From positions 8,893-72,892 of the forward strand of contig JBGFSC010000025.1 in assembly GCA_041694815.1 (NCBI GenBank): DNA of 64,000 nucleotides, written 5' to 3'. The notes beneath the pieces are model-generated. The model ran no database searches. It saw only the letters and a program-made list of their open reading frames with translations, and was not told the DNA's origin. Below, in pieces: positions 5,427-44,914 of this stretch. The stretch comes from Elusimicrobiota bacterium (GTDB lineage: Bacteria > Elusimicrobiota > Elusimicrobia > UBA1565 > JACRDR01). Position 1 is the first letter of the stretch. Each line of letters opens with the position of its first letter. A program made the position numbers and the translations under genes.

Positions 5427-5465
5427 TGCTGAAACCCCGAGCCACGCGCCCAAAGCGCGGAACGA

Positions 5466-5515
5466 CGGTGCCAGGGATTGACTTTCGCCTAGGCGAAAGT
5501 CAATCCCTGGCACCG
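5466..5515. repeat. Perfect 50-bp palindrome (25+25) between the sprA-like gene and comF
   Basis: cGGTGCCAGGGATTGACTTTCGCCT / AGGCGAAAGTCAATCCCTGGCACCg. I reverse-complemented the left arm by hand and it equals the right arm with no mismatch. No U-tract follows on either strand. Confidence 0.9.
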
Positions 5516-5560
5516 CCAAAAAACAATGGAACTATTTCCCCGAAAACTCGTACTTGTATC

Positions 5561-6205
5561 ATGCGCTCCTGGCGGCGAGTCGCTCTCGATTGGATCGCCC
5601 CCCGGAGCTGCGCGGATTGCCGCATGGATCTCCCGCCTCCGCTGCAGGGGCCGCTCTGCGGCGCCTGCCTGCGCGCCCTAAGGCCTTGGGAGGGAACGAT
5701 TGAAGCGACCCCCTCGCTGCTCGGCGTCCAGGCGGCGTTCGCCTATAAGCGACCCCTGTCCCAACTCCTGTTCGCCTTCAAATACCGCGGCCGCCTCCAG
5801 GCGGGCGGGGCCTTGGCGGCCTGGATGGCCGGCACGTATCGCCAAAAGCCCGAGCTCCATGGGGCCGACTGCGTCGTGCCGGTGCCGCTGCACCCGCGCC
5901 GCCTTCGCGAACGCGGATTCAACCAGGCGGAGATACTGGCGGAGTCGGTCGCCCGGGCCGCGGGAGCCCCCCTACGGCGGGACTTGCGGCGGGTCCGCAA
6001 TACCGCCCCGCAATGGCGGCTAAACCGCGTCCAGCGCGCCGAGAACTTGCGCGGCGCCTTCGAGGCCCCCGCTCCGCTGCCCTACGCACGCGCGCTGCTC
6101 GTCGACGACGTCTATACCTCCGGCGGGACCCTGGAGGACTGCGCCAGGGCGCTCAAAGCGGCGGGCGTTTCGGCCGTCAAGGCCTACGTGCTCGCGCGGG
6201 ACTAA
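5561..6205 (+). CDS. comF: ComF family protein (amidophosphoribosyltransferase-like)
   Basis: N-terminal Cys pairs (CADC...CGAC), the FAFKYRG motif, VPVPLHPRRLRERGFNQAE, and the PRTase motif LLVDDVYTSGGT. The ATG at 5561 is in frame with the track ORF 4595..6205. The upstream part of that ORF overlaps the sprA-like gene and is rejected. Confidence 0.85.
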   Translation: MRSWRRVALDWIAPRSCADCRMDLPPPLQGPLCGACLRALRPWEGTIEATPSLLGVQAAFAYKRPLSQLLFAFKYRGRLQAGGALAAWMAGTYRQKPELHGADCVVPVPLHPRRLRERGFNQAEILAESVARAAGAPLRRDLRRVRNTAPQWRLNRVQRAENLRGAFEAPAPLPYARALLVDDVYTSGGTLEDCARALKAAGVSAVKAYVLARD

Positions 6206-8040
6206 CGGATGCCTAGCAGCTTCTTCCACCAAGGCGAAGGGCGGGATGCGGCCGCCTTGGGGATGGGGACATCGGCCGGCGGGGTATGAAAGGGAAGGGT
6301 GAACAGGAAGCTCGAGCCGCGGCCCAGGTCGCTGACCACCCACATCTGGCCTTTTTGCATGTGGATGAGGGCCTTGGCGATCGCCAGGCCGAGCCCCGTG
6401 CCTCCCACGTGCTTTTCGCCCGCGGCGATCTGGACGAATTTTTGGAATATCTTCTCTTGGTCCTCCTTGGCGATCCCGGGGCCGGTGTCGGTCACCGAGA
6501 ACTGGACCAGGCGCTCGCGCGCCTTGGGTTCGAGCCGCACGGAGATCTTGCCCCCCTTGGGAGTGAACTTGATGGCGTTGGAAAGCAGGTTGACGAGCAC
6601 CTGCACCGTCCGGCGGATATCGGCATGGATGGGCGGAAGGTTGGGCGGCGCGTCCAATGTGAGGGAGATACCCTTCTTCTGGGACCAGGGCTGAAGGCTT
6701 TCCACCGCCTCGCGCGCGATCCTTTCCGGGGCGACTGGCTCCGGGCGCACGCTCATCTGCCCCGATTCGATCTTGCCGAAATCCAGGATGTCGCGGATGA
6801 GGTCGGCCAGGCGGTCGGAGTTGCGCAGGGCGGTGTTGAACATGCGCTCGTCGTCGGGACTCAATTTGCCCTGGAACTGCCCCTGCAGGAGCTCGAGGGC
6901 GGCGCGGATGGCCGACAAGGGGGCGCGCAGCTCATGCGTGACATGCGCCACGAATTCCCGCTCCACCCGGGCGAGCTCCTTCTGCTTCGTGATGTCGGGA
7001 AGCACGGAAACCAACCCGACCGTCTTGCCCGCCTCGTTTTGGACGACGGCGGCGGAGGCCCGCAAGGTGCGCTTGGTCTCGTCGGTGCTCATCACCGAGA
7101 CTTCCTGGTTGATCGGTCGGTCCTGCGGGGCGTTGATCTCCGCGGCCAAAGCCATCAGATGCTCTTCCTTGACGTTGTCGGCCAGCGGCTTACCCGCCGC
7201 CTCGGCGAGCCGCTTGCCGTATATTTCCTCGGCCGCGGGATTCATCATCAGCACCTTGCCCTGCTCGTCGACGACGACGACGCCCTCGGCCATCTGCGTC
7301 AATACGGTCTGCGTACGTATCTGCTCGTTCTCGATCTGGGTTTTCTCGCGCCGGAGCCCCTCGGTGGCCTGCCGTACCTTGTCCTCGAGCTCCTGGCGAA
7401 TCCTCTGCAGGACCAGCTCGGTCAGCCGGCCCTGGTCCTGCGGGTCGACAGCGGAGGCCTTGACCAGCGCGTCGATGGTCTGCTCCAGCGTGGCGTTCTC
7501 CAGGCGTTCCGCCAACTTCTGCGCCTCGCCCGACGGCGCCGCGGCGGCGGCCGGCCGCTCCGCGGGCAGCGGCGCCTCGGGCTGCTGCCCGACCTTAGCG
7601 TAAATCGCCTCGTTGAGGCTGATATGCGTCAGCTGCCGCTCGGCCAAGAAAGCGGCCGGGTCGACGGCCTTGGCCTGCTCGGGGCGCAGTGCCGCCATCT
7701 CGCAGAGCGCCGACAATTCCGATACGGGAAGCCCGGGCTTGAAGCTGACGCTGGAGAGGCGATGCCGTGTGAAGAACTGGGTGATGGAGCTCGGAAGCTG
7801 CGAGGAGGCCCCGACCACACGACCGTTGGCGATAAGCTTCTCCTGGTCGATCGAAAAGGCGAGCTCCGACTGGACCTGGGCCAACAACTGCTGGAGCAGG
7901 GCATGGGACTGCTCGATCGTCGCCGCGACCGTGGGATGGCCGATCCGGTAGAGATTCATCTGGCTCAAGGCCTTGCCCAGGGCCTTCAAGGCCTCCAGGC
8001 AAAGAAACTCGAACGACCCGGCGGCGGGGGAGGCGGCCAT
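6202..8040 (-). CDS. Cytoplasmic PAS sensor histidine kinase
   Basis: H-box HVTHELRAPLSAI, a PAS-like segment (MAEGVVVVDEQGKVLMMNPAAEEIYG), and an HATPase with N-box LLSNAIKFTP and G-boxes DTGPGI / GGTGLGLAI. The start lies 2 nt after the stop of the upstream dehydrogenase gene. Its stop codon overlaps the comF stop (CTAA at 6202-6205). Confidence 0.9.
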   Translation of the reverse strand: MAASPAAGSFEFLCLEALKALGKALSQMNLYRIGHPTVAATIEQSHALLQQLLAQVQSELAFSIDQEKLIANGRVVGASSQLPSSITQFFTRHRLSSVSFKPGLPVSELSALCEMAALRPEQAKAVDPAAFLAERQLTHISLNEAIYAKVGQQPEAPLPAERPAAAAAPSGEAQKLAERLENATLEQTIDALVKASAVDPQDQGRLTELVLQRIRQELEDKVRQATEGLRREKTQIENEQIRTQTVLTQMAEGVVVVDEQGKVLMMNPAAEEIYGKRLAEAAGKPLADNVKEEHLMALAAEINAPQDRPINQEVSVMSTDETKRTLRASAAVVQNEAGKTVGLVSVLPDITKQKELARVEREFVAHVTHELRAPLSAIRAALELLQGQFQGKLSPDDERMFNTALRNSDRLADLIRDILDFGKIESGQMSVRPEPVAPERIAREAVESLQPWSQKKGISLTLDAPPNLPPIHADIRRTVQVLVNLLSNAIKFTPKGGKISVRLEPKARERLVQFSVTDTGPGIAKEDQEKIFQKFVQIAAGEKHVGGTGLGLAIAKALIHMQKGQMWVVSDLGRGSSFLFTLPFHTPPADVPIPKAAASRPSPWWKKLLGIR

Positions 8041-8042
8041 GA

Positions 8043-9353
8043 TCAGAGGCGGCTGAGCTTGGGGTTACGCACGCCGCCCAGGGCGTTGCGGGCGTCGAAG
8101 ACGCGTTTGGAGGCGCGCAGCACGCCCGCGTAATCCACGCCGGAATGGGCGGTGAGCACGGCCACCACGTCGCTTCCCTTGAGCGCCGCCTTGGTGAGCG
8201 GCGTCGAGCGCAGCGTCTTCCCCGCAAGCTCCAGCCTCGGGACGAAGCGGTCGTGGTAGCGCACCCTAGCCCCGTCGCGCAGCAACAGGCTAATCACGTC
8301 CAAGGCCGGGGACTCGCGCACGTCCCGCACGTCGGGCTTGTAGGCGACACCCAGGACCAGCACGCGGCTGCCCTTGAGCGCGAGGCTGTCCTCGTTGAGC
8401 AGCCCCGAGATGCGGCGGACCGTGTATTCGGGCATCGAGGCGTTGATGACGCCCGCCAATTCGATGAAGCGAGGCTCGAAATTGAGGGATTTCATCTTCC
8501 ACGCCAGGTAATGGGGATCGAGCGGTATGCAATGGCCCCCGATGCCGGGACCGGGAAAGAAGGGCATGTACCCGAACGGCTTGGTCGCGGCCGCCGATAC
8601 GATCTCCCAGACGTCCAAGCCCAGCTTATCGCACATGAGGGCGATCTCGTTAACGAGGCCGATGTTGACAGCCCGGAAAGTGTTTTCCAGCAGCTTGACC
8701 ATCTCGGCCGACTCGGCGCAGGAAACCGGCACCACCTTCTGGATGATCTGCGCGTATAACGCGGCGGCGCGTTCCGTACAGGCTGCGGTCAGCCCGCCTA
8801 CCACCTTCGGGGTATTCGCGATGCGGTATTGGCGGTTGCCGGGGTCGACCCTCTCCGGCGAGAAGGCCAAGTAGAAATCGGAGCCCACCCTCATGCCCTT
8901 TTTCTCGAGCAAAGGAAGCATCAGCTCGCGAGTGGTGCCGGGGTAGGTCGTGCTCTCGAGCACGATGAGCTGTCCCTTCTTGAGCCGCGGGGCGATCTCG
9001 CGGGAGGCGGCGAGGATGTAGCTGACGTCGGGCTCCTTGCTCTTGCGCAGCGGGGTGGGCACGCAAATGACGACGGCGTCGAGGCCCTTGAGGGAATCGA
9101 AACGCCCTGTGGCCTTAAATAACCCCGAGCGCACCAGCCCCGCCAACTGCCCGGACGGCACATCCGCCACGTGGGAGACGCCCCGATTGAGTGAGCGTAT
9201 GACGCCCTCGTCGACCTCGAAGCCGACGACCTCGAAGCCCTTTTCGGCGAACTCCACGGCGAGCGGCAGGCCGACGTAACCCAGCCCCAATATGCCGATC
9301 TTGGCGGTCTTATCCTCGATGCGGTCGAGCAAGGTGGGCATGAACTTTTTCAT
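8043..9353 (-). CDS. Nucleotide-sugar dehydrogenase, UDP-N-acetyl-D-glucosamine/mannosamine 6-dehydrogenase type
   Basis: Rossmann motif IGILGLGYVGLPLAVEFAEKG, catalytic region GPGIGGHCIPLDP, and a C-terminal UDP-binding domain. The start is taken at MKKF (ATG at 9353) rather than the longer track ORF. Confidence 0.85.
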   Translation of the reverse strand: MKKFMPTLLDRIEDKTAKIGILGLGYVGLPLAVEFAEKGFEVVGFEVDEGVIRSLNRGVSHVADVPSGQLAGLVRSGLFKATGRFDSLKGLDAVVICVPTPLRKSKEPDVSYILAASREIAPRLKKGQLIVLESTTYPGTTRELMLPLLEKKGMRVGSDFYLAFSPERVDPGNRQYRIANTPKVVGGLTAACTERAAALYAQIIQKVVPVSCAESAEMVKLLENTFRAVNIGLVNEIALMCDKLGLDVWEIVSAAATKPFGYMPFFPGPGIGGHCIPLDPHYLAWKMKSLNFEPRFIELAGVINASMPEYTVRRISGLLNEDSLALKGSRVLVLGVAYKPDVRDVRESPALDVISLLLRDGARVRYHDRFVPRLELAGKTLRSTPLTKAALKGSDVVAVLTAHSGVDYAGVLRASKRVFDARNALGGVRNPKLSRL

Positions 9354-9458
9354 TGTATGTAACCCGCAGGAGCGCGTCAATAATTCCAATCGGCGCGTCG
9401 TTTGCGCCGAGTCCGGTCGGACCCCCACGGGGTCCGACCGATCCGTCGGGGGCCAACC

Positions 9459-9487
9459 TTGAATCCTCCTTTCATAAGTCCTATGAT
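9459..9487 (+). promoter_or_regulatory. Sigma70-type promoter upstream of ugd
   Basis: TTGAAT - 17 nt - TATGAT, counted by hand, 18 nt upstream of the ATG at 9506. Confidence 0.5.
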
Positions 9488-9505
9488 GCCGTTGTCGAAA
9501 TTCTC

Positions 9506-10816
9506 ATGCAAAAACAAAACATTTGCGTCATCGGCAGCGGCTACGTCGGCCTGGTCACCGGTGCCTGCCTGGCCCATCTGGGGCACCGGGTCGTATGCGT
9601 CGATTCCGACCGCAAGAAGATCGCCGACCTCAAAAAGGGGCGCAACCCGATCTACGAGCCGGGCTTAGGTGAGCTCTTGGCCGAGGGGCTGAGGAAGGGA
9701 AACCTGAGCTTCGCGACGAGCGTCTCCGAGGGGATGAGCCGCGGCGGCCGCGCCCAGGCCATCTTCATCGCGGTGGGCACCCCGCCGCGCCCCAACGGCT
9801 CGGCGGATCTCTCTTTCGTGGAGTCGGTCGCCGAGGAGGTGGCCAAAAACCTGAAATCGTACGCGGTGATCGTCGACAAGTCGACGGTCCCAGTCGAGAC
9901 GGGCGAATGGGTGCAGAAGACGGTGCAGCGCTTCAACAAGTCCGGCACGCCCTTCGACGTCGCCTCGAACCCGGAATTCCTGAGCGAAGGCTCCGCGGTC
10001 CAGGACTTCCTGCAGCCGGACCGCATCATCCTGGGAGTCTCATCGACGCGGGCCGAGGCGGCGCTCCGCGCCGTCTACGCGCCGATCAAGGCGCCGATCC
10101 TGGTGACCGACGTCAAGAGCGCGGAGCTTATCAAGCACGCCTCCAACTCCTTCTTGGCGACTAAGATCTCCTTCATCAATGCGGTCAGCGTGCTTTGCGA
10201 GAAGACGGGCGCCGACGTCACCCGGGTGGCGGAGGGCATGGGCCTCGACCGGCGCATCGGCAAGTCCTTCCTGCGCGCCGGCATCGGCTTCGGGGGCTTC
10301 TGCTTTCCCAAAGACCTGGAGGCCTTCCATTGGATCGCCCAAAAGAAGGGCTACGATTTCAAATTGCTCGAGGCCGTGCGGGAGATCAACGAATACCAGA
10401 AGGACTGGGTATCCCGCAAGGTCGAAGAGGAGCTCTGGAACCTCGAGGGCAAGCGGGTCGCGGTGCTGGGGCTGTCGTTTAAGCCGCACACCGACGACCT
10501 GCGCTTCGCCCCGAGCCTCGAGATCATAGCCAAGCTCCAGGCGAGCAAGGTCTCCGTGACGGCCTACGACCCGGTGGCCATGCCTAAGGCCAAGCGCCTG
10601 CTCAAGGGCGTTCGCTTCGCCAAGGACGCCTATGACGCCGCCAAGGACGCCGACTGCCTCATCCTCGTTACCGAATGGCCCCAGTTTTCCGAGCTCGACC
10701 CGGCGCGGCTCAAAGCGATCATGAGGCATCCCATCCTGCTCGACGGGCGCAACCTGTTCAATCCCAAGAAATGGCGGGCGGAGGGCTTCACGTACCGCGG
10801 CGTGGGCCGCCCGTGA
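9506..10816 (+). CDS. ugd: UDP-glucose 6-dehydrogenase
   Basis: [38 protein letters not shown], and a typical UDPGDH C-terminal domain. The start is the ATG at 9506. Confidence 0.9.
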
Positions 10817-11742
10817 GGATACTCATCACCGGGGGCGCCGGGTTCATCGGGAGCCACCTCTGCGAGCGCTTCCTCAAGGACGGCGACACGGTGATCGCGA
10901 TGGACAACCTCCTCACCGGCCGCATCGAGAACGTCAAGCACCTCTTCGGTCACGAGCGCTTCACCTTCCATAAGCAGGACGTCACCCAGTTCATCCACGT
11001 GCCGGGCAAGGTGGACGCGGTGCTGCATTTCGCCAGCCCTGCGAGCCCGGTCGATTACATGCATTTCCCGATCCCGACGCTCAAGGTCGGCGCGTTGGGG
11101 ACGCACAAGGCGCTCGGCCTGGCCAAGGACAAGAAGGCCGTGTTCATGCTCGCCTCCACCTCGGAAGTCTACGGCGACCCGCAGGTCAACCCGCAGCCGG
11201 AGAGCTACTGGGGCCATGTCAATCCCATCGGGCCGCGCGGGGTCTACGACGAGGCCAAGCGCTTCGCCGAGGCCATGACCATGGCCTATTATCGCTTCCA
11301 CAAGATGCAGGTGCGCATCGCGCGCATCTTCAACACCTACGGCGAGCGCATGCGCATCGAAGACGGCCGGGCCGTGCCCAATTTCATGACCCAGGCGGTC
11401 AAGGGCCGGCCGATCACGATCTACGGCGACGGCCGACAGACCCGCAGCCTCTGCTACATCTCGGACTTGGTCGACGGCATCCACCGCCTGCTGCATTCCA
11501 AGGTCAACGCCCCGGTCAACCTGGGGAACCCGCAGGAGATCACGATCGCCCGGCTCGCGGAGACGATCCGCTCCCTCTCGGGCTCTCGCTCCAAGATCGT
11601 CCGCAAGCCGCTTCCCGTCGACGACCCCAAGCAGCGCTGCCCCGACATCCGGCTGGCCCGCAAGCAGCTCGGCTGGTCGCCGAAGGTTCCCCTCGAGACC
11701 GGACTGCGCAAAACGCTTGCCTACTTCCGCCAAGCCCTGTAG
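10813..11742 (+). CDS. uxs: UDP-glucuronate decarboxylase (UDP-xylose synthase), SDR family
   Basis: [14 protein letters not shown], the YDEAKR catalytic motif, and high overall similarity to UXS. The GTG start overlaps the ugd stop (GTGA at 10813-10816). Confidence 0.85.
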
Positions 11743-11841: not shown

Positions 11842-11875
11842 TTCGAAAAGAAAGACCCCGGTTTCCCGGGGTCTT
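11842..11875 (-). terminator. Rho-independent terminator (minus strand)
   Basis: The minus-strand RNA reads AAGACCCCGG-GAAA-CCGGGGUCUU followed by UCUUUUCG. That is a 10-bp GC-rich stem, a GNRA tetraloop and a U-tract. On the plus strand no U-tract follows. Confidence 0.8.
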
Positions 11876-11906: not shown

Positions 11907-11935
11907 AATATAATAGACGTCCCGTATTTTGTCAA
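11907..11935 (-). promoter_or_regulatory. Near-consensus sigma70 promoter on the minus strand
   Basis: The minus strand reads TTGACA - 17 nt (aaatacgggacgtctat) - TATATT, counted by hand. It lies in the 224-nt gap between the stop of the Cys-rich gene (12099) and the terminator. Confidence 0.55.
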
Positions 11936-12098
11936 TCGTTCCGGCTGTGGGCCCGAAGTAGTTCGACTCCCACGAGCTGACAATAGAACTGACACTTGGA
12001 CCCAGGGGCTTCAAAATTGTCGGTCAAAATGTCAGCCGCACGACCGCAGGGCCTGAGTGCTTCCGAAAGGCCCTATGTTCTGGCCTTTGAGTTTGCCG

Positions 12099-12716
12099 TC
12101 ACCAGTGATCATGGCTCGTCCCGATCTCACATTTCCCATACGACCAGGCGCTCCCGCCCTCGCAACGATAGCCTTGCGGGCAGTCGCCGGCGCTGTGGCA
12201 GCCGCCGCTGCTGCCCCAGGGATCGGAGCTCTTGCCGGCCTCGCATTTCCCATACGACCACGAGCTGCCGCCCTGACACCGGTAGCCTTCCGGACAATCG
12301 CTCGCGCTGCGGCAGCCGCCATTGCCCCAGCTGTCGGAGCTTTTGCCGGCCTCGCATTTCCCGTACGACCACGAGCTGCCGCCCTGGCATCGGTAGCCCT
12401 CCGGACAATCGCTCGCGCTGCGGCAGCCGCCGCTGCTGCCCCAGGGATCGGAGCTCTTGCCGGCTTCGCATTTCCCATACGACCACGAGCTGCCGCCCTG
12501 GCATCGATATCCTTGGGGGCAGTCTTCGGCGCTGCGGCAGCCGCCGTTGCCCCAGCCATCGGAGCTCTTGCCGGCTTCGCATTTCCCATACGACCACGAG
12601 CTGCCGCCCTGACACCGGTAGCCTTCCGGGCAATCGCTCGCGCTGCGGCACCCGCCGCCGGCCGAGGAGATGCCAGACTGCGCGCCGAGAATCAAAATGA
12701 CGATCAAGTTCATCAT
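12099..12716 (-). CDS. Secreted cysteine-rich tandem-repeat protein (5 x 37/38-aa four-Cys modules); no family recognised
   Basis: The SD AAGGAGG lies 7 nt before ATGATG at 12716. A hydrophobic signal-like N-terminus (MMNLIVILILGAQSGISSA) is followed by five copies of C-x5-C-x5-C-x10-C (CRSASDCPEGYRCQGGSSWSYGKCEAGKSSDxWGxxGG). Confidence 0.8.
   Translation of the reverse strand: MMNLIVILILGAQSGISSAGGGCRSASDCPEGYRCQGGSSWSYGKCEAGKSSDGWGNGGCRSAEDCPQGYRCQGGSSWSYGKCEAGKSSDPWGSSGGCRSASDCPEGYRCQGGSSWSYGKCEAGKSSDSWGNGGCRSASDCPEGYRCQGGSSWSYGKCEAGKSSDPWGSSGGCHSAGDCPQGYRCEGGSAWSYGKCEIGTSHDHW
12110..12650. repeat. Tandem DNA repeat with alternating 114/111-bp units (225-bp super-unit)
   Basis: The GCATTTCCCATACGACCACGAGCTGCCGCCCTG core recurs at about 12129 (variant), 12243, 12354, 12468 and 12579. 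The spacings are 114, 111, 114 and 111 bp. Confidence 0.9.
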
Positions 12717-12899
12717 AGTCACACCTCCTTACTTACGAGGATTTATAGCCGGTAAAGCCCAGGCGCCAGGACAGGAAGACCTAACCGCCTCCAAGGCCCT
12801 TGGTCCTATATTCTTTCAGCTTCCCGTTATTGAAAATTTAACAAGGTACAGCTACCCTTTTGGAGTTGCCGCGAATACTTTTTATTAGGGAAGGCTGAC

Positions 12900-15800
12900 A
12901 TGGACGAACCCCAAATGGACCCCTCCGCCGTCACCGACGTCGAGACGGCGCGGCTCGCCCTGCGCTGGGCCTTAGAGCGCATCCATCTCCTCCAGGAGGA
13001 GTCCGGCAAGGCCAAGGAAACAGCCAAGGACGCCCTGGAAAAGCTTCGCCTAGCGGGCGAGGCCCTGGCCCAGAAAGACGAGACCCTACGACGCTGGCAA
13101 AACACGCTCAAGACCTGGGAAGCCAATCTCCGAGACCACCAGAGCATGGAGGAAACGATCCGAGAGCGCCTGCGCAAGGAGCTCATGGTCGAGGAGGACG
13201 CCCGGCAGCAGGAGGCGCGCAACCAGCTCCTCAAGCAGATCGACTCGCTCAGGCGGGAATTGACGGAGCGCGAGAGCGCCATCGGGCAGCTCAAGCGCGA
13301 CCATATCGACGCGCTCCGGGACGTACGCCGCCAGATGGAGAAAGAGGCCGAGAATCTGCTCCGCCACCAGGAGAAGGCCTTCGAGCAAACGAAGGCCGCC
13401 ATACTGGAGCGCGTCAAGGTCCAGGAGGAGAGCCTGCGGGCCAAGGAGCAGGACTTAGAGCGCCAGCAGCGCATGCTCGACGAGAGGGTCTCGGCCCGGG
13501 AGCTCGAGATCCGCAAGAATTACCAGGGCCTGGAGGCGGAGCTCGAGCGGCACGCTCGCGAGGCCCTGGCGCTCCAAGAGAAGGAGCTCAGGGCCGATTA
13601 CGCCAAGCGGGCGCAGGAACTGGAAGCCTCCTACAAGAACAAGGTCGAGGCCGAATGGGGACACTTCCACGAGAAGCTAGAAGCCGAACGCCGGCTCATG
13701 GAGCAGCATTACCGCGAGAAGGAGGCCAAGCTCGATCAGGCCGTTTTGTTGCGCAACCAGGACATACAGGCCCATTACCAGCAGACCGAGCAGGCCCTCA
13801 TCGCCAAGTACCAGGCGATCCAGGATCAATTGATCGCCAAGGAGAAGGAGCTGTGGGCGGCCCATCGCAAGCAGCTCGACGAATCCCTGGCGAAGAACCG
13901 CAACGAAGTCGAGGAGCAGCGGCGGCAGCTCGAGCAGGCCTACCTGCAGAAGCAGGCGGCCCTCAACGCAGAGCGCCAAGAGCTGCGCGAAGCGCTTTCG
14001 AAAAAGGAGGCCGAATTCGCGGCGCGCCACGAGGCGCTGGTCCTGGAATACCGGGCCGTGGAGGAGAAGCTGCGCTCGCAGCTGGAGGAGGAGCGCGCGG
14101 CGATGGAGACACGCCTCAAGGAACGGGAGCTCGAGCTCGAATCCCGACAACAGCAGCTGCTCGAGCAGTCACGGGCCAAGGAAATCGAGCTCCGCGGCCA
14201 CCTGGAGGCCGAACGCGCGCAGTTGGAGCAGCATTTTAAGGCCAAGGAAGCAGAACTGGACCGGCGCCTGGCCTCCGCCGAAGCGCAACTGGAATCCCGG
14301 ACCGCCGAGTTGGAGGCGGCCTACCAGGAGAAAGAAAAGGCCTTGCGCGCGAGGCAGGCGGAGGAGGAATCGGAGGCCGCCAAGCGCTGGACGCAGCGGG
14401 AGCGCGAGCTCCTCGCCGAGCAGCAGAAGATCCTGGAGGCCGTCCGTGGCGAGGCCCGCTCCGAACTCGACGCCGAGCGCAGGCATTTGGAGGCGCTGCT
14501 TTCTCAGCGCCAGGCCGAGTGGTCCGAGACGATGGCCGCCCAAGAGGCCCAGCTGCGGCAGAATCTGCAGGAGGAGCAGGCCCGCTGGCTCGCCGCGCAG
14601 CAGGCGCTCTACGAGGGACTGCGAAAGGAACTCGCCGCGAAGGCCATCGAGGAATCGGCGGCATTGCGCCGGCAACATGACCAACAATTGGGCCGCGAAC
14701 TGGAGGCGCTGCAAAAACGCCACGCGGACGAGCTCGCGGCGGCGGAGAAAAAGCTCAAGGAGCGGCTCCAAGCCGCCTTCGCCGAGAAGGAAAGGCGACT
14801 CCTGGAGGCCTTCGAGCTCCAGGAGGCCGAGCTGCGAGCGGAACTCGCGGAGAGGGACGCGGGCTACCGCGCGGCGCATGAGCGCGCCTACGAGGAGAAG
14901 CGCCGCGCCCTGGCCCAGGAGTTTTCGGAGCGCGAGCGCGAGCTCGAGTCTCGGCTCACCGCGCGCGAAGCTCAGTCCCGCGAGGCCTGGGCCAAGCGGG
15001 AGGCGGAGATATTGGCGCAGCGGGACGCTCTGATCGCCAACGAGCGCGCGCGCCTAGAGCACGAGTTCAAGCAGAAGCAGTCCCTGCTGGAATCCGAACG
15101 CATGCGGGCCCAGGAGGAGCAGTCCGCCCGGATACGGGAACTGGAGTCCGGCTACAGCGAGAAGCTGCGGCGCATGGAGGAGGACTACCAGCGGAGGCAC
15201 GAGGAGCTCGAGGCCGCCCGGATCCAGATGGTCCTGGAGAACCGCAACCGCGAGGCGAAGATGGAGGAGAGGATCCAGGCCCGTGAGGCGGAGCTCAAGC
15301 GGGCTTTCGACGCCCGGAAGGCCGAGTTCGACGAGAAGGAAGTGCAGATGCAGGCCCGCTGGATACAGCGGGAAGCAGAGCTGAGTGAGGCGCTCTCCGC
15401 CCGCGAGGCGGCCTGGATGAAGGCGCAGCGTGACTCCATGTCCCGCGAGCAGCAGGTGGCCGACGCCGCCAAGCAGCAGGAATGGCAGGCCAGGCGCGAG
15501 GAGCTGGAGTTGAGCTACCAAGAGCGCGCCAAGATGCTCGACGACGCCGCGCGCGCCAAGCAGCGCGAGATGGAGGAATTCCTGCTGCGCAAGGAGAAGG
15601 ACCTCATCCTCGCCTACGAGGAGCGGGTATTCAAGGCCAGGACCGAGCTCGACGCCGCCTACCAATCCCGCGAGGAGGCCTTGGAGCTCAAGCACCTGGA
15701 GCTCGAGCGCAAATTGACCGCGAACTGGGTCTCGCGCGAGACGGCTTGGAAGCAGCAGAAGACCGACATCATGGACCGAGAGATCGCCGCGCTCCGACAG

Positions 15801-16172
15801 GATTTCATCCAGAAGGAAGCCGCGCTGAGCGCGCGCGTGGCGGAGCAGGAGAGGGTCCTGGCCGAGCGCAAGAAGGAGCTCGAGGAGAAATACGAGTGCC
15901 TGCAGCGCGAGGCCCAAGAGGCGCTCGGGCAGGAGCGCTCACGGCAGAACCTGGAGCTGCTCGAGAAGGAGCAGGCTCTCATCGAGCAGTACCAGAAACG
16001 CGAGGCCGAAATGGTCGGCGATTACAATCACAAGCGGGCGGAGATGGCCTCGCTTTACGAGGAAAAACTACGCCGCCTGGCCGCCGAGCGCGCCCAATTG
16101 CAGAAGGATTACGAGAAAAAGATTTTGGACCTCGCCGAACGGGGCAAGGATCAGCCTCGGGCGAAGGACTAA
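12900..16172 (+). CDS. 1090-aa coiled-coil protein (E/R/A/K/Q/L-rich, no enzymatic motif, no signal peptide)
   Basis: This is the only long ORF in the region. It has an ATG with a GGGAAGG SD 6 nt upstream, and uninterrupted helical low-complexity sequence with almost no Pro or Gly over more than 1000 aa. Confidence 0.85.
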   Translation: MDEPQMDPSAVTDVETARLALRWALERIHLLQEESGKAKETAKDALEKLRLAGEALAQKDETLRRWQNTLKTWEANLRDHQSMEETIRERLRKELMVEEDARQQEARNQLLKQIDSLRRELTERESAIGQLKRDHIDALRDVRRQMEKEAENLLRHQEKAFEQTKAAILERVKVQEESLRAKEQDLERQQRMLDERVSARELEIRKNYQGLEAELERHAREALALQEKELRADYAKRAQELEASYKNKVEAEWGHFHEKLEAERRLMEQHYREKEAKLDQAVLLRNQDIQAHYQQTEQALIAKYQAIQDQLIAKEKELWAAHRKQLDESLAKNRNEVEEQRRQLEQAYLQKQAALNAERQELREALSKKEAEFAARHEALVLEYRAVEEKLRSQLEEERAAMETRLKERELELESRQQQLLEQSRAKEIELRGHLEAERAQLEQHFKAKEAELDRRLASAEAQLESRTAELEAAYQEKEKALRARQAEEESEAAKRWTQRERELLAEQQKILEAVRGEARSELDAERRHLEALLSQRQAEWSETMAAQEAQLRQNLQEEQARWLAAQQALYEGLRKELAAKAIEESAALRRQHDQQLGRELEALQKRHADELAAAEKKLKERLQAAFAEKERRLLEAFELQEAELRAELAERDAGYRAAHERAYEEKRRALAQEFSERERELESRLTAREAQSREAWAKREAEILAQRDALIANERARLEHEFKQKQSLLESERMRAQEEQSARIRELESGYSEKLRRMEEDYQRRHEELEAARIQMVLENRNREAKMEERIQAREAELKRAFDARKAEFDEKEVQMQARWIQREAELSEALSAREAAWMKAQRDSMSREQQVADAAKQQEWQARREELELSYQERAKMLDDAARAKQREMEEFLLRKEKDLILAYEERVFKARTELDAAYQSREEALELKHLELERKLTANWVSRETAWKQQKTDIMDREIAALRQDFIQKEAALSARVAEQERVLAERKKELEEKYECLQREAQEALGQERSRQNLELLEKEQALIEQYQKREAEMVGDYNHKRAEMASLYEEKLRRLAAERAQLQKDYEKKILDLAERGKDQPRAKD

Positions 16173-17472: not shown

Positions 17473-19249
17473 GCAGAACCAGGAAAAATTCGCAGCCGCG
17501 GCCCACGCTCGATTTGACCCCGACGCGCCCGCCGTGCGCCTCGACGACGTTCTTGACGTAGGCGAGACCCAGGCCCATCCCGTCGACCTGTCCCGTGAAA
17601 TCGCCGTCGACTTGGTAGAATTTCCTAAACAAGCGCGGGTGCTCTTCCTCGGGAATACCGGGCCCGTTGTCGACGACCGATATCCGCACGCCGCCGTCCT
17701 CCTCGGCAGCGTGAATATCCACCCGCCGGTCTTCTTTAGGGTTGAACTTGATCGCGTTCTCGATGAGATTGCGTACCGCCTCCTTGAGGCGGTAGAGGTC
17801 GCCCAAAAACGGCGGGGCCGCGCGCAGGGCGGCGGCGTCGAAGCTCACGCGCGCCTTTTTTTCCGCGGCGTAGTCCTCCGCCGCCTTGCAGGCCTGCTCG
17901 ACTAAGGCCTGCACCTCCGAGGGCTTCTTGTCTAAGACCAGCATCTCCGGATTGTAGACGGAGGCGAAGAAGAGCAGCTTGTCGACCATCGCGTTGAGCT
18001 TCTGCTGCTGGTTGACGAGCGATTGCAGTATCTGCCTTTGCGGCCCCTTGAGACCGGTCAGCTCGGCCAGGAGTATGTCGAGGTAACCCATCGACGCCAT
18101 CAAGGGGGTGCGGACCTTGTGAGAGATGAGGGATAAGACGCTGCGCGCGAGCACCTCCTCGCGCTTTTCCGAAGTCGCGTCGCGGAACACCCATAGGAAC
18201 CCGGCCGAGGCGGCCTGCGGGCCCAGGCGGTCCCGGGTCCCCGCCAGGATCAGCAATTGGGGCTCCTTGCGGCTGAACTCGAAATTGGCGCTGCGGCCAT
18301 CGGCCCGGAAAAGCTCGTCGATGGGCGTTCCCTGGAACCGGGAAAGGGCCTCTTGGATCGTCTTCGGCGCCGACTCCACGGGCGACGCCGAAGAATCGCC
18401 GAAGCCGAAGAGGCGGCGCGCCGTCTCGTTGAGCAGCAGGAAGCGCCCCTCGGGATCGGTCAAGGCCATGCCCTCGTGCGTCTCCGAAAATAGGGTCGTC
18501 CATTTTTCCTTTTCTTCCTTAATGGCGGCGAAGGCGAGCGCGTTGGCCACGGCCATCTCGTTGAAGGCCCGAGCGAGCGTGCCGATCTCGTCTTGGCTCC
18601 TCCATTCCACTTGAGCGCCAAGGTTTCCCCGCCCGATCTCGCGCGCGGCGGAAGCGAGCAGCGGCAAAGGGCGCGTGATCCAGCCCACGATCATCACCGT
18701 TCCTACCACCGCCGCGAGAATGGCGACGGCGGTGATTACGAGTATCTGCCGCTTCGAGGAGCGCAGCGCCTCCTCGACCGAATCCCGGGTGAAGCCCATG
18801 CGCACGGTCCCCACGCGGCGCTCGCGCACGGCCACGGGAACCGCCAGGTCGAAATACTCGACGCCGTCGGCCGCGCGGTACTGCTGCAGCAGGCTGCCGC
18901 GGCTGGCCCTGGCCTTCAAACCCTCGGCGGTTTGGTCGATCTCGCCCACGTGGGCCGGATCGGAATGGGACATGATCTTGCCGTCGGTATCCATTACCTC
19001 GGCATAGACCACCCCCTCCTCATTGAGCAGCTCCTGGACGGTGAAATGCAGGGCGAAGGGCTCGAGTTTCGGGAAGATCGCCTCGCGGCAGGAGCGCGAG
19101 AAGGCCTCGGCCCGCACCCGCATTTGCCCGATGAAGCCCAGCCGGGCATTTTCCAGGATCCGATGCGCCATCAGTCCGATCACCCCCAAAACCAGCAGGG
19201 AGCTCAAGAGCGACAATTTGAACGCGATGCTGCGCAAGGGGTTCTTCAT
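17462..19249 (-). CDS. Membrane sensor histidine kinase (periplasmic domain-TM-HAMP-PAS-HisKA-HATPase)
   Basis: Two TM segments, a HAMP domain (ITRPLPLLASAAREIGRGNLGAQVEWRSQDEIGTLARAFNEM), the H-box LISHKVRTPL, and an HATPase (NLIENAIKFNP, DNGPGI, GMGLGLAYV). Its start overlaps the stop of the upstream gene (TGATG). Confidence 0.9.
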   Translation of the reverse strand: MKNPLRSIAFKLSLLSSLLVLGVIGLMAHRILENARLGFIGQMRVRAEAFSRSCREAIFPKLEPFALHFTVQELLNEEGVVYAEVMDTDGKIMSHSDPAHVGEIDQTAEGLKARASRGSLLQQYRAADGVEYFDLAVPVAVRERRVGTVRMGFTRDSVEEALRSSKRQILVITAVAILAAVVGTVMIVGWITRPLPLLASAAREIGRGNLGAQVEWRSQDEIGTLARAFNEMAVANALAFAAIKEEKEKWTTLFSETHEGMALTDPEGRFLLLNETARRLFGFGDSSASPVESAPKTIQEALSRFQGTPIDELFRADGRSANFEFSRKEPQLLILAGTRDRLGPQAASAGFLWVFRDATSEKREEVLARSVLSLISHKVRTPLMASMGYLDILLAELTGLKGPQRQILQSLVNQQQKLNAMVDKLLFFASVYNPEMLVLDKKPSEVQALVEQACKAAEDYAAEKKARVSFDAAALRAAPPFLGDLYRLKEAVRNLIENAIKFNPKEDRRVDIHAAEEDGGVRISVVDNGPGIPEEEHPRLFRKFYQVDGDFTGQVDGMGLGLAYVKNVVEAHGGRVGVKSSVGRGCEFFLVLPKA

Positions 19250-21474
19250 CAGTACAAGACGGCGATCTTAAAGCGCTGGGTGTCGCTGCGGCCCGCATAG
19301 GCCTTGCGGATCTGGGCGATATACCCGCCGGGCGCCACTCGGCGGCCCGCGTCGTTGGAGCCGTTCCAAGTCCACACCTGGTTGCCGGCCGCATCCACGC
19401 GCCGGGACTCCTCATGCACCAGATCCCCTTGGAGAGTGTAGATGCGCAAGGTGACGTCGGCGGCCTCCTCGAGCGAGAAGCCGATGTTCGTGGGGCCCGT
19501 CTGCGGATCGAATGGATTGGGCCAGTTATAGGGCTTGGAAATCCGTGCCGCTTGGGCCGGCACGAAGACGCTCACGGGAGGGCTCGAATCCGAGAAGCTG
19601 CTGCTCAAATCGGCGTTGCTCTGCGCCCGGACCCTGGCGTAGTAGGTCCGCCCCGTCGCCAGGCCGGCCACCGTATAACTCAAGACGTTGCCGACGTTGA
19701 CGCTCGCGAAATCCGCGGTACCCGGGATGGTGCCGATCTCGAAGACGTAGTATTGGATGCCCGAAGCGCTACTGGCCGCGCTCCAACGGAAGGTGGCGGT
19801 GCCGTCATAGGAAAAAGGGCTGTCCGCTCTGGGTGCGCCGGGAGGCTGCGGCGGCACGGTGCTCGTCGCGATCGAAAAGGTCTGCGTGAAGGGGGTTCGG
19901 ATGCCGTCCGAATTGACGGCGCGCACGCGCAGGTAATATACGGTTTCCGGGGTCAGGCCGCCGGGCGAGGAGGACAGGCCCACGACGAAACCCGTCTGCG
20001 CCGCGGCGCTGAAATCGGAGACGGTCGACAGCCACACCTCGTAGGTGGTCGAGGAATGGTTTGGCGGTGAGCCCGGGCCCCAATTGAAGGTCAGGCCCGT
20101 CTGCTGCACCGCGCTAAAGGTCGAGACCCCCGAGGGCGGGCCCGGCGTGTTGGCCAGGGTGTGGGTTGTAACGACCAAAGATGGCAAGCTGTCTCCCCAA
20201 TCCGTGAAGGCGGTGATAAAGCGGGAATAGGTGGTGTTCGGGAGCAGGCCCTCTTCGATCACCGACGACACGGTGCTCAGGACGCTTTTTTGCGGGGAGG
20301 GCAACGGCGGCAGAGAGGAGGAGGCATGGACATGGAATTCCCGTATCCCCGAAACGCCATCCCCCCAGGCGAGCGAAGAATTCCAACTCCACGTGATCGA
20401 GGTGATAAACACGGGGCCGACCGCGACGTTAGAGGGCGAGGACGCGATGATGCCGAAGCTGATCGTCCCGGTGGAACCGTTGTTGACCGTACCCGTGGAT
20501 TCGAAATTCCCCGTTCCTCCGCCCTTGCCCCCGACGAATCCTATCGCCGTCGATAAGATGATGGAGAAGCTCGAGGGAGAAACGTAATATAACTTTATCC
20601 GCCCCCCGGCCCCGCCCCCACCGGGATTGAGAGTGCCCCCCGCAGGAGTTTGAACATGGCCGCCGTTGCCTCCTTTCGCGGAAAGAGAACCGGAGCCGCC
20701 AAACCAGGCGTATCCCGGCGCGCGAATGACAATGCCCCCGCCCCCGCCGCCGCCCCCGCCCCCCGGATGATTGCCGACATTTAAATCCGTAGCCGAGGCT
20801 CCGGCGGCTCCGTCGGCCAGAACGCTTCCGTTGCCGGCGAACGTAATAGAACTTGCCTCCAAATAAACGCTGGCACCACCCGGTCCGCCCGCGCCGCTCG
20901 AGGCATTGGCATTATCGCCGCCCCCTCCGCCGCCGCCGCCGGAACCCATGGCGGCATCGTCGCGGGAAATCGGCAAGGTTACCGTTCCACTTGAAAAATA
21001 CGCGGCACCCCCGGCCCCTCCCCCACTCCCCCCGCCTTGGCCACCGGAATTGCCGTACCCTCCGCCGCCGCCGCCCTTATACAAAGCGCCGCCGGCGCCC
21101 GCCCCCGACGGCCCAGCCCCAAGTCCCGTCGAACCGCTACTGCGTACGCCAGCGGCCCCGCTGGCCCCTCCGCTGCCACCGACAGTTCCGCCCCCGACTC
21201 CATTGATAGTGCCGAAAATCGATACCGTGGAGGCATAAATGACAAGCGGCGTGCCCTGATAAACGAAAACCGTTGTCCCCACGCCGATGGAGAACAAGCG
21301 TACGTTGGAGAATGTGCCTTGCAAGGTGTCGCCATTGCCGCACGTTTCGGCGGCTCCGCATACCGCCGAACCGTCGCAGATCAAATCCAAGCCCCCACAG
21401 TCGCGGCCCGCGATGATGGCCGCCTGCGCGGGCGGGCGCGCCAACAGCAAGAACAGCGAAAGCCAGGCTGTCAT
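19249..21474 (-). CDS. Secreted glycine-rich beta-helix-like / fibronectin-III surface protein with a FlgD-Ig / T9SS-type C-terminal domain
   Basis: Signal peptide MTAWLSLFLLLARPPAQA. The Gly-rich region contains runs of 6, 8 and 10 consecutive Gly alternating with short hydrophobic strands. FN3-like segments follow (PSNVAVGPVFITSITWSWN...; PPQPPGAPRADSPFSYDGTATFRWSA...). The C-terminus is NWPNPFDPQ...VTLRIYTLQGDLV...WTWNGSNDAGRRVAPGGYIAQI...FKIAVLY. Confidence 0.85.
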   Translation of the reverse strand: MTAWLSLFLLLARPPAQAAIIAGRDCGGLDLICDGSAVCGAAETCGNGDTLQGTFSNVRLFSIGVGTTVFVYQGTPLVIYASTVSIFGTINGVGGGTVGGSGGASGAAGVRSSGSTGLGAGPSGAGAGGALYKGGGGGGYGNSGGQGGGSGGGAGGAAYFSSGTVTLPISRDDAAMGSGGGGGGGGDNANASSGAGGPGGASVYLEASSITFAGNGSVLADGAAGASATDLNVGNHPGGGGGGGGGGIVIRAPGYAWFGGSGSLSAKGGNGGHVQTPAGGTLNPGGGGAGGRIKLYYVSPSSFSIILSTAIGFVGGKGGGTGNFESTGTVNNGSTGTISFGIIASSPSNVAVGPVFITSITWSWNSSLAWGDGVSGIREFHVHASSSLPPLPSPQKSVLSTVSSVIEEGLLPNTTYSRFITAFTDWGDSLPSLVVTTHTLANTPGPPSGVSTFSAVQQTGLTFNWGPGSPPNHSSTTYEVWLSTVSDFSAAAQTGFVVGLSSSPGGLTPETVYYLRVRAVNSDGIRTPFTQTFSIATSTVPPQPPGAPRADSPFSYDGTATFRWSAASSASGIQYYVFEIGTIPGTADFASVNVGNVLSYTVAGLATGRTYYARVRAQSNADLSSSFSDSSPPVSVFVPAQAARISKPYNWPNPFDPQTGPTNIGFSLEEAADVTLRIYTLQGDLVHEESRRVDAAGNQVWTWNGSNDAGRRVAPGGYIAQIRKAYAGRSDTQRFKIAVLY

Positions 21475-23300: not shown

Positions 23301-23347
23301 TAGACCAGCTTCTCGGCGCCCGCATATTGTTAAGGGCCCGCGCCGAA

Positions 23348-23388
23348 TTGTCAAGGCGTGACAAAAATCCCATTGACAAAGTTTGACA
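23348..23388. promoter_or_regulatory. Candidate operator cluster in the divergent intergenic region
   Basis: An inverted repeat TTGTCA-aggcg-TGACAA (23348-23364) is followed by the direct repeat TTGACAaagtTTGACA (23373-23388, 10-bp period). Confidence 0.4.
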
Positions 23389-27100: not shown

Positions 27101-27278
27101 TTTCGACGTATCCGGCGAGGTGAAGTACAACGTCAGCATCGGCAATCCGCCGGCGTCGCTCGAGCACACCTGGGACATCTCGGGGGTGGGAAGCGGCGTC
27201 TACTCCTACGTCGTGACCGCCCGCAAGGACGGGCAAGGGGCCCTGCGTAAAACCGGCAAACTGGCGGTGATCAAATGA
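24177..27278 (+). CDS. Secreted Kelch-propeller / beta-helix surface protein with a T9SS-type C-terminal sorting domain
   Basis: Signal peptide LLCAALALPAKAES. There are at least 6 Kelch-like blades (HxxAxxNGxLYVxGG...GPW). Two Ig-like modules are present (FSIDGAAFAEYASPLSIESDGAHELRYFSVDKAAN; IRYSLDDGTETTYAGPFSLPEGWHTLSFGATD), then a bactofilin-like beta-helix stretch. The C-terminus is YVFPNPARGG...VDIRVFDVSGEV...GVYSYVVTARKDG...GKLAVIK. Confidence 0.85.
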   Translation: MPPLRTLKGILLCAALALPAKAESAFSSLTPLPDGYFGHSLAAAHGFLYHCGGLSSSNGIGDGDKVYYAKILAPGKIGPWLQGPALPEPAFFHAGAAWNRTLYVLGGYHFRDGFTVSGSVYYSNLNEDGSPGPWHATASLPEGLFLHSAAVWNGTLYLTGGWSDGGLLNSVYSAAIREDGSLGPWTPQTPLPQGVYAHTTVQDGTIYVIGGAIQNGTQIHNGVYFSKIKADRNLSEWQSGTPLPEAIANHISAVIGGRVYVAGGWTGAQPTDAVRTAPILADKSLGDWREESPLPVKLYYHAGASADGVLYLSGGNDTNQPVSAVYSFVAPAPPPPPPIADRLPPRTNLEVGTPLLASAPPIISPETLLSLSAQDDRDTVGDGLGLGVQSSQFSIDGAAFAEYASPLSIESDGAHELRYFSVDKAANSEPVKAWAFQVDATAPQTTLQVGSPVISLFGIDLISTKTPLTLSAVDPVVNGTASGVDIIRYSLDDGTETTYAGPFSLPEGWHTLSFGATDRIGHREGRQTATLLAGSLLEDSIAGIDSIRLSGGASLTGTARTNGTLTLEGRSTVNGDAYAMAASVTGKSEIKGTLRQGAATLPSSLDLTAFRAWAEAHHDNARIADHLAGGTLALDGKTRLILPSGSYFLSGLKLSGGAELEMSGTVHIFLTGALDISGDGALNASGDANSLWIFSDHGQASIAGKGRAALHLYAPNADISITGSGQMAGRLLGKSVFLAGRASQPSMTALAPVEHRPGAAQKIRAPKPVAKASSAASSVKASALPALRFGDGSAFSLVHAGGSAVRSHLRHGVVIPEGALRAPSVAISVAKENAAAAELERRRAAMSARSLVEVGSPVSYGPEGTRFSKPVTLELAYERARLPANVSENQLAVHYWNPATGQWEALPSQVDAQAQIVRAQTDHFSTYQLLAGGKPSASSSGLSLGETYVFPNPARGGESPKFHIESSADAVDIRVFDVSGEVKYNVSIGNPPASLEHTWDISGVGSGVYSYVVTARKDGQGALRKTGKLAVIK

Positions 27279-44804: not shown

Positions 44805-44914
44805 AACCCCCTGTGGTTGCTAACGCGAAAGAACCGTGACGGGGGCCGCGCCCGCGACCCCCGTCATACTTTTTGCAGTTGTGGGCCGATACGAAATGTC
44901 GTACGCTACCCTGG

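Follow-up and report, generated by a model that had tools for sequence, protein, structure and literature searches.

A 64,000-nt stretch of DNA from an Elusimicrobiota bacterium (hereafter the window) contains a cysteine-rich gene, encoded on the reverse strand at 12099-12716, whose 205-residue product comprises a predicted secretory leader followed by five tandem four-cysteine modules. The product is best explained overall, with slightly less than even confidence, as an exported, DsbA-oxidised "beads-on-a-string" multivalent binder. It is a very rare new sequence variant of a known architecture, that of bacterial secreted cysteine-rich repeat proteins, here with modules that resemble a disulfide-directed beta-hairpin (DDH); we regard it as a modest curiosity rather than a surprise. 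That the open reading frame (ORF) is a real gene is close to certain, and it is best explained as monocistronic, with a product of ~19 kDa that carries no enzyme domain or anchor.

Translation of the ORF and the coordinates of its modules bear out the composition given in an earlier note on this DNA: five tandem units, each with the pattern C-x5-C-x2-G-x2-C-x10-C (that is, C-x5-C-x5-C-x10-C), and 20 cysteines among 205 residues (9.8%). The mature chain, 186 residues if cut after Ala19, is made of these five modules and nothing else, its C-terminus lying 9 residues past the last cysteine. It is composed of 22.6% Gly, 19.4% Ser, 10.8% Cys and 10.8% Trp plus Tyr, with a pI of 5.9 and a net charge of 0 for each module. 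Just 1 of its 186 residues is aliphatic or Phe, so folded units must be held by disulfides and aromatic residues. Mean pairwise identity between modules is 81% (87-97% among units 1-4). Within the 10-residue third loop (QGGSSWSYGK), S17, W19 and Y21 are invariant in all five modules, including the diverged module 5. A six-frame scan of the 64 kb did not find this regular cysteine pattern anywhere else in the window.

The DNA units (111, 114, 111, 114 and 99 bp) differ from one another mostly at silent positions. Among units 1-4, 14 of the 17 variable columns fall at the third codon position, and pairwise unit differences on codon positions 1, 2 and 3 number 6, 3 and 46. When pairwise codon differences were counted in all six frames, the ratio of synonymous to non-synonymous differences was 42:6 in the annotated frame and 30:13 in the best antisense frame, the remaining frames being almost without synonymous changes; translation of a different frame, which the earlier note had held open as a way to be wrong, is thus not borne out. 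The high-GC shadow and antisense ORFs on both strands (11996-12700 and 12057-12755 on the forward strand, 12032-12589 and 12127-12651 on the reverse) were therefore dismissed for their poor ratios, and searches turned up no Shine-Dalgarno sequence or homologue for any of them. For the unit cores of 31 codons, dN/dS ratios estimated by the Nei-Gojobori method lay between 0 and 0.10, with dS ranging from 0.11 to 1.15. Because the inter-unit differences are almost all synonymous, this pattern means that the array has been held by long-standing, protein-level purifying selection on every module, and not by DNA homogenisation or recent duplication only. The recent duplication or concerted evolution proposed earlier does fit the cores of units 1 and 4 (2 of 93 nt differ) and the linkers of units 2 and 4; the other unit pairs, with dS of 0.4-1.1 and dN about 0, do not share it. 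Likewise, the 225-bp super-repeat described earlier survives as a real 114/111 alternation of lengths, and Tandem Repeats Finder reports both a period of 225 (2.4 copies, 87% matches, no indels, score 819) and one of 111 (4.7 copies, 85% matches, score 752), but its history is mosaic, the core of unit 4 being nearest to that of unit 1 and its linker matching that of unit 2 exactly.

Export of the product is probable, judging from its leader. The h-region LIVILILGA has a mean Kyte-Doolittle hydropathy of 3.39 across 9 residues, so it is too short to serve as a membrane anchor; the cleavage site Ser-Ser-Ala/Gly has fitting residues at -3 (Ser) and -1 (Ala), and in relatives this position is occupied by a canonical signal peptide. 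A lipoprotein was considered and rejected: the lipobox [LVI][ASTVI][GAS]C is absent, and G-G-G precedes Cys23. The window also encodes a DsbA-like protein (45430-46407) that has a signal peptide and a CPYC site and is adjoined by a TlpA-like redoxin (WCASC), the two forming a set of extracytoplasmic thiol-disulfide machinery on the forward strand (44873-46407). With both proteins encoded in the window, oxidative folding of an exported protein with 20 cysteines is therefore feasible.

The modules are likely to be independent disulfide mini-domains, and by analogy the DDH pairing, C1-C3 and C2-C4, is slightly favored. All five modules (C-x5-C-PxG-xx-C-x10-C), and all of the relatives, conform to the DDH consensus C-X4-19-C-X2-(G/P)-X2-C-X4-19-C, in which two disulfides are mandatory (PMC3381931). 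AlphaFold2 predicts in every module a short turn over S-D-C and then a beta-hairpin, with C3 and C4 on separate strands (pLDDT ~70); the whole protein modelled without an alignment reached pLDDT 62, a single module with a 27-sequence alignment 71, and the linkers, predicted to be disordered, stayed below 50. A Foldseek search, the check suggested in the earlier note, listed small disulfide-rich proteins (inhibitor cystine knot (ICK) toxins, knottins, Dkk1, Dkk4, EETI-II) but yielded no significant match, the best for a single module being the two-disulfide MCoTI-II intermediate 2po8 (root-mean-square deviation 1.5 A over 27 columns, non-significant). A PDB sequence search with the protein returned no matches; those of a module profile, a hidden Markov model, against PDB sequences were non-significant, with C1-C4 repeatedly aligning with squash cysteines II, III, V and VI (CKQDSDCLAGCVCGPNGFC). 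Knottin cysteines pair II-V and III-VI, so this register equals the DDH pairing.

Resemblance to the DDH, knottin and Dickkopf/colipase folds is suggestive, and family membership is not claimed. The DDH peptides, such as scorpion U1-LITX-Lw1a and sea-star KASH2, share the four-cysteine consensus, and in the window module the hairpin is likewise predicted on C3 and C4 (PMC3381931, PMC11891777); they are single-domain animal peptides without detectable sequence homology to the window protein, whereas the latter is a bacterial five-fold tandem array. In the squash knottins (EETI-II, MCoTI-II, CMTI) the aligned segment corresponds to the module's C..DSDC..GY.C..G.C at E-values of 0.18-4.6, a resemblance only, and the module is missing Cys I and Cys IV, has no knot, and has no inhibitory loop before Cys II. 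The term disulfide-knot module used in the earlier note consequently has to be abandoned, since a knot needs three disulfides and each module has four cysteines; an ICK or knottin module, with six cysteines and three disulfides of which one threads a ring, was rejected on the same count. The comparison to Dickkopf and colipase made there fares better. It names the right structural neighborhood, given the DDH consensus and relatives near the threshold of Dickkopf_N (PF04706; 19-26 bits, with P0007 at 26.3 against a whole-protein cutoff of 25), although the window protein itself is unmatched by that model at E up to 10. Colipase and prokineticin domains have been described as a head-to-tail pair of DDH motifs (bioRxiv 10.1101/485722). 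For the two cysteine-rich domains of Dkk, CRD1 and CRD2, a colipase fold has been described, with subdomains that look like ICK proteins and possibly go back to an ancestor with a single subdomain (PMC6078440). A Dickkopf, colipase or prokineticin domain of this kind has ten cysteines and five disulfides, including bonds between subdomains, and one window module corresponds to at most half of it.

Searches with family models did not place the protein in a well-known family with a defined function, an outcome that the earlier note had named as one that would overturn it. Two Pfam models are formally passed, Lustrin_cystein (PF14625; 29.3 bits against a cutoff of 27) and DUF7107 (PF23416; 27.0 bits against 24.6), in both cases as the sum of five partial matches, each to half of a model 46-48 residues long. 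The best Lustrin_cystein stretch covers profile positions 19-43 of 46, while that of DUF7107, for which we found no papers mentioning it, runs over residues 82-116, spanning a linker and the next module, and covers profile positions 18-47 of 48. Matches of the relatives lie at or close to the cutoffs of EB (PF01683), DUF7107, Dickkopf_N and Lustrin_cystein, those of EB and DUF7107 being passed. The EB, DUF7107 and Lustrin_cystein models share the periodic C...DC..G..C..G.C pattern of the window protein; they are, however, 46-52 residues long with more cysteines, their matches are partial and straddle module boundaries, and the families have no defined function. Among NCBIfam models the window protein has only a weak match to the MYXO-CTERM family MXAN_6627.5 (E 0.05), and it is unmatched by TIGR04201 (Myxo_Cys_RPT, a 22-residue model with a cutoff of 25 bits), which scores its relatives at 25.7 (P0008), 24.8 (P0010), 17.3 (P0019) and 16.5 (P0006) bits. 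The repeat that TIGR04201 models is rich in cysteine and was defined from TraA, a myxobacterial receptor, in its stalk (PMC3325183). Like the window protein, the proteins of TIGR04201 and MXAN_6627.5 are bacterial and extracytoplasmic with tandem C-x5-C-x5-C modules; the window protein differs from them in coming from Elusimicrobiota and in its 10-residue third loop, and it has neither the PA14 head nor the MYXO-CTERM anchor between which the TraA repeats sit. The EB, DUF7107, Dickkopf_N, Lustrin_cystein and TIGR04201 models evidently all capture one periodic C...DC..G..C pattern. Candidates that were rejected include Nodulin_late and the nodule-specific cysteine-rich (NCR) peptides (cutoff 30.4 bits, score 20.3, the match covering only the leader and the first cysteine pair) and Toxin_12, WAP and Squash (E above 0.2).

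Relatives of the cysteine-rich gene are few. A word-indexed homology search with the full protein gave no matches, exact-sequence look-ups with three alternative starts gave no record, and no relatives emerged when GTDB genomes, JGI metagenomes and IMG/VR viral contigs were scanned by back-translation. An exhaustive phmmer search against 1.84 billion cluster representatives returned 16 weak matches at E <= 1e-3, the best at 1.2e-8, and the gene is thus nearly an orphan. The eukaryote-like CPAGYYC repeat proteins among them (P0004, P0005, P0014-16) were set aside as sharing only a short motif, at a different periodicity. The informative matches are small metagenomic proteins (P0006, P0007, P0008 and P0011, and later P0017-P0020), each of them a singleton whose name is either "hypothetical protein" or "EB module [compost metagenome]", with a canonical signal peptide, 3-4 modules of the form C.[WF]DSDC..GY.C..GEC.MGKWPDGG and a short basic tail. 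BLASTP aligns the window protein to P0006 collinearly from the leader through three modules (7e-19), a window module being a P0006 module with two insertions, one of 6 residues (SSWSYG) in loop 3 and one of 4-5 residues in the linker. A search with the di-module profile A3 matched only five proteins. The C-x5-C-x5-C-x10-C spacing of the window protein recurs in P0001, whose third loop, however, is basic. In an alignment of 27 family modules C1, C7, C13 and C24 are invariant and D6 and G10 are at least 90% conserved, and linkers are conserved as GKWPDGG in the relatives and GKSSD.WG.GG in the window protein. Across family members loop 3 differs in composition and ranges in length from 4 to 10 residues, yet all five modules of the window protein have it unchanged; we therefore infer that it is a functional surface, presented in five copies.

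Three contigs carrying relatives have neighborhoods worth recording. On L006 (1886-3647) P0007 closes a run of three adjacent genes whose products are secreted tandem-repeat proteins, the first of 179 aa with D.S.TF.D.DG repeats and the second of 250 aa with seven two-cysteine CV..AY.ADGFDMT....WC repeats. On L002 (263-2380) P0017 lies directly downstream of PvcA-like (DIT1_PvcA) and TauD/PvcB-like genes, an isonitrile-synthase-type pair. The distant relative P0010 is found on a 71% GC contig (L007) beside a 1265-aa type II topoisomerase-like gene, which matches Pfam DNA_topoisoIV and, weakly, TOPRIM_C and was read as eukaryote- or giant-virus-type; the four-cysteine module family is therefore probably not confined to bacteria.

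Taken as a mechanism, the protein would be exported by Sec and its leader cleaved, after which a periplasmic DsbA-type oxidase would close two disulfides per module to give five independently folding mini-domains of ~25 residues. Each of these would be a DDH (C1-C3, C2-C4), in effect a knottin minus its first disulfide or a single colipase/Dickkopf subdomain, and they would be strung as beads on flexible Gly/Ser/Trp linkers, displaying five copies of loop 3 by which the protein would bind through avidity. Multivalent binding, taken as a claim of its own, is a tentative proposal that we hold at a little under even. It draws on the architectural class of secreted cysteine-rich repeat proteins/peptides (SCREPs), surveyed from UniProt by Maxwell, Undheim and Mobli in 2018, in which many uncharacterised bacterial candidates were found and all characterised tandem cysteine-rich repeat peptides act by multivalent avidity (PMC6262176). 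SCREPs combine a signal peptide with a "pure domain repeat" [AAAAA] of small Cys-rich domains at high repeat purity; the window protein has a predicted leader, and here too tandem Cys-rich domains, five modules with 4 Cys each, form the mature protein. The class is architectural and not a homologous family, however, and its characterised members are animal toxins and inhibitors with ICK, Kunitz or WAP domains and include no bacterial one that has a four-cysteine module. To our knowledge, no bacterial secreted cysteine-rich repeat protein has been characterised.

The likeliest class of ligand would be an envelope or matrix glycan polymer, with a platform formed by Ser17-x-Trp19-x-Tyr21 making the contact. 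Tandem hevein-domain arrays act as multivalent lectins. The S-x-W-x-Y spacing mirrors Ser19/Trp21/Trp23 of the hevein site (Ser19, Trp21, Trp23, Tyr30; PMC10136942), which makes a glycan polymer the most attractive ligand by analogy, and both hevein (CBM18) and the window module (SSWSYGKC) place an S-x-aromatic-x-aromatic motif on a disulfide-pinned strand before a cysteine (PMC10136942). Hevein, however, has eight cysteines and a different fold, so that the likeness is one of motif only, and a glycan as the actual ligand seems doubtful. Several observations weigh against the proposal as a whole. The n-region of the leader has no Lys or Arg, which is atypical for a signal peptide. The window protein has no Pfam match to any carbohydrate-binding family, is unmatched by the eight-Cys profile Chitin_bind_1 (hevein/CBM18), and has only the S-x-W-x-Y motif in common with hevein; its closest relatives lack the SSWSYG insertion, and the proposed platform is thus specific to the window protein. 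The gene neighborhoods of the relatives are heterogeneous, with nothing in common, and uninformative. Finally, because synteny breaks at the gene (see below), the adjacent UDP-sugar genes need not be functionally linked to it. In its boldest form, the proposal would make the protein a true free-standing bacterial DDH that, with its metagenomic relatives, represents the prokaryotic counterpart of the ancestral ICK/colipase/prokineticin/Dickkopf subdomain, deployed as a five-valent lectin-like binder; we consider this improbable.

The same features could be accommodated by a passive structural or matrix protein, that is, a disulfide-stiffened spacer, envelope filler or adhesive matrix component comparable to the TraA stalk repeats or to the Cys/Gly/Tyr-rich matrix proteins of animals, an explanation to which we give a minor share of belief. 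The Gly/Ser/Cys/Tyr/Trp-rich composition and the marginal Lustrin_cystein match are in keeping with it, as are those relatives that reach or approach the TIGR04201 cutoff and P0007, which touches the TraA repeat region; for the TraA repeats a rigid stalk has been proposed, and extracellular matrix typically contains Cys-rich proteins (PMC3325183). Yet the window protein itself escapes TIGR04201, it has no head domain, sorting tag or anchor and hence nothing on which a stalk could act, and full conservation of loop residues in all modules exceeds what a spacer needs. Rather unlikely, too, is a polyprotein precursor whose linkers are cut so that the modules become free, identical peptides of 3-4 kDa with two disulfides each, acting as toxins, antimicrobials or inhibitors. 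Analogues are known from plants (tandem knottin precursors) and from arachnids (DDH/ICK toxins), toxins and protease inhibitors are built on this class of scaffold (with weak Pfam and PDB matches to Toxin_12, Squash and EETI/MCoTI), and the high repeat purity, the strong purifying selection on every module and the family-conserved linkers, which could be a processing signal, would all be expected of it. What tells against such processing is that the linkers contain no dibasic or other recognisable cleavage motif and that there is no peptidase, ABC exporter or immunity gene within 10 kb; moreover, neutral modules and a mature pI of 5.9 are unlike cationic antimicrobial peptides, and in squash inhibitors the loop that binds the protease precedes Cys II, where the module has no equivalent.

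If the cysteines stayed reduced, the protein could be a metallothionein-like periplasmic thiolate metal binder or redox buffer, and its 20 cysteines, the Asp and Glu beside them (SDC, KCE) and its His-rich C-terminus (HDHW) lend that idea some appeal. Cysteine content of 10% is well below that of metallothioneins, however, with no CxC or CxxC clusters and no metallothionein family matches in Pfam or NCBIfam, the regular spacing, conserved Gly and predicted hairpin fit a disulfide scaffold, and a DsbA-like oxidase is present, so that we hold this quite implausible. It is harder still to credit an artefact, whether a repeat mis-assembled at the wrong copy number or an ORF untranslated in the annotated frame. 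The window is probably a metagenome-assembled contig in which short reads could mis-count the copies, given the near-identity of the unit 1 and 4 cores, and no second sequence of the gene occurs in any collection searched. Against this, many synonymous differences tell the units apart, no stop interrupts the frame in any unit, and its synonymous to non-synonymous ratio is by far the best; divergence is greatest in the terminal unit, as in natural arrays, the Shine-Dalgarno sequence, ATG and terminator are in place, and there are homologues that share the leader-plus-modules layout. The repetition of Cys-rich cores, with GGG right before the first cysteine, might also recall a multi-core precursor of a peptide that is synthesised ribosomally and modified post-translationally (RiPP) or a double-glycine-leader bacteriocin, but the leader is of the hydrophobic Sec type and not double-glycine, and the neighborhood contains no radical-SAM enzyme, YcaO, lanthipeptide synthetase, C39 peptidase or ABC exporter; this is the least credible of the alternatives.

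A bacterial protein built solely of DDH modules that selection holds identical would extend the scaffold to prokaryotes, single-domain DDH peptides having been reported so far only from arachnids and one sea star (PMC11891777). Free-standing bacterial DDH modules would be relevant to the origin of the knottin and colipase/Dickkopf folds, where it is still debated whether the ICK and colipase/Dickkopf folds go back to an ancestor with one subdomain (PMC6078440). Such an array would also allow multivalency to be tested simply, in a natural setting, among bacterial secreted cysteine-rich repeat proteins, and engineers would gain a scaffold that is compact, free of aliphatic residues and pinned by disulfides. 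If its function is mundane, such as matrix filler, the result would be merely the annotation of an orphan gene from an uncultured Elusimicrobiota lineage.

Table 1. Features of the cysteine-rich gene and its flanks in window coordinates.
Feature	Position	Strand	Description	Basis or note
Coding sequence	12099..12716	-	205 aa + stop; leader, then five four-Cys modules	ORF list and translation
Shine-Dalgarno sequence	12724..12729	-	AGGAGG, 7-nt spacer to ATG 12716	Read directly from sequence
Predicted Sec-type signal peptide	12660..12716	-	MMNLIVILILGAQSGISSA (aa 1-19), then GGG	Hydropathy and cleavage-site residues
Module 1	12540..12650	-	aa 23-59, 37 aa, CRSASDCPEGYRCQGGSSWSYGKCEAGKSSDGWGNGG	
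Module 2	12426..12539	-	aa 60-97, 38 aa	The only amino-acid changes within the cores of units 1-4 (S to E, E to Q)
Module 3	12315..12425	-	aa 98-134, 37 aa	Protein of 31-codon core equals modules 1 and 4; 8 synonymous differences from module 1
Module 4	12201..12314	-	aa 135-172, 38 aa	97.8% nt identity of the core with module 1; linker equals module 2 linker
Module 5	12102..12200	-	aa 173-205, 33 aa, divergent terminal unit	Retains four Cys, D6, P8, G10, Y11 and the S-x-W-x-Y loop
Intrinsic-terminator-like hairpin	11842..11875	-	AAGACCCCGG-GAAA-CCGGGGTCTT and T-rich tail	224 nt past stop codon
Divergent intergenic region	12717..12899	.	183 bp, common to the cysteine-rich and coiled-coil genes	Promoter scan

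Expression signals are listed with the modules in Table 1. The strong Shine-Dalgarno sequence that the earlier note ascribed to the gene is present, and so is an intrinsic terminator-like hairpin, standing well downstream of the stop codon and not immediately after it; on the reverse strand (11875..11852) its perfect 10-bp stem, with 7 GC pairs, is followed by TCTTTTCGAA. An in-frame TAA at 12731-12729 lies upstream of the ATG at 12716, which is the credible start; the GTG at 12722 that begins the longest variant of the ORF is implausible because the codon abuts the Shine-Dalgarno sequence. A consensus scan found no sigma-70-type site on the reverse strand in the intergenic region, and there was no Rfam match around the gene. 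Between the stop codon and the terminator, at 11907-11935 on the reverse strand, is a near-consensus sigma-70-like promoter (TTGACA-17-TATATT, 11 of 12 matches), ~30 nt upstream of the hairpin; its transcript would be ~50 nt long and has no Rfam match, and the site may be due to chance.

The cysteine-rich gene is convergent with a UXS-like gene and, as noted previously, divergent from the giant coiled-coil gene, an ORF of 1090 aa (12900-16172, forward strand) that is rich in Glu, Ala, Arg and Lys and has no Pfam match; used as a synteny probe, this ORF found no relatives in genome or metagenome contigs, and exact look-ups of its protein and of the window's own UXS record were unsuccessful. Neighboring genes encode UDP-sugar enzymes, histidine kinases and coiled-coil, WD40, fn3 and TPR proteins. 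The UXS-like gene has its best matches (76-81% identity) in proteins of Elusimicrobia/Elusimicrobiota metagenome-assembled genomes (MAGs). One such MAG contig (L004; JAPLKK010000041.1, GCA_026388115.1) is collinear over positions 1-10915 with window positions 691-11727 at 67-77% nucleotide identity, sharing the order of genes for a 1780-aa protein, a phosphoribosyltransferase, a PAS kinase, two UDP-glucose dehydrogenases and UXS. This homology ends exactly at the UXS stop codon (window 11742), and an IS91-family/Y2 transposase occupies the place of the cysteine-rich gene; a second related contig (L005) has unrelated genes there. On this comparison of sequences the cysteine-rich gene is lineage-specific and sits at a synteny breakpoint.

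Near the start of the window, the forward-strand ORF at 93-5426 encodes 1777 aa without a Pfam match, its counterpart in L004 being 1780 aa at ~70% nucleotide identity. The stop codon of a UDP-glucose dehydrogenase gene and the GTG start of the UXS-like gene overlap as GTGA at 10813-10816, implying translational coupling; with this start, the 355-aa ORF call for UXS is ~46 codons too long. Farther along the window are two pairs of genes, each for a large, probably surface-exposed protein and a UPF0164-family protein: fn3 and FlgD_ig (741 aa) with TPR and UPF0164 (627 aa) at 19249-23354 on the reverse strand, and Kelch and DUF7305 (1033 aa) with UPF0164 (302 aa) at 24177-28183 on the forward strand. 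Such pairs may represent a recurring module of a surface protein and its outer-membrane partner.

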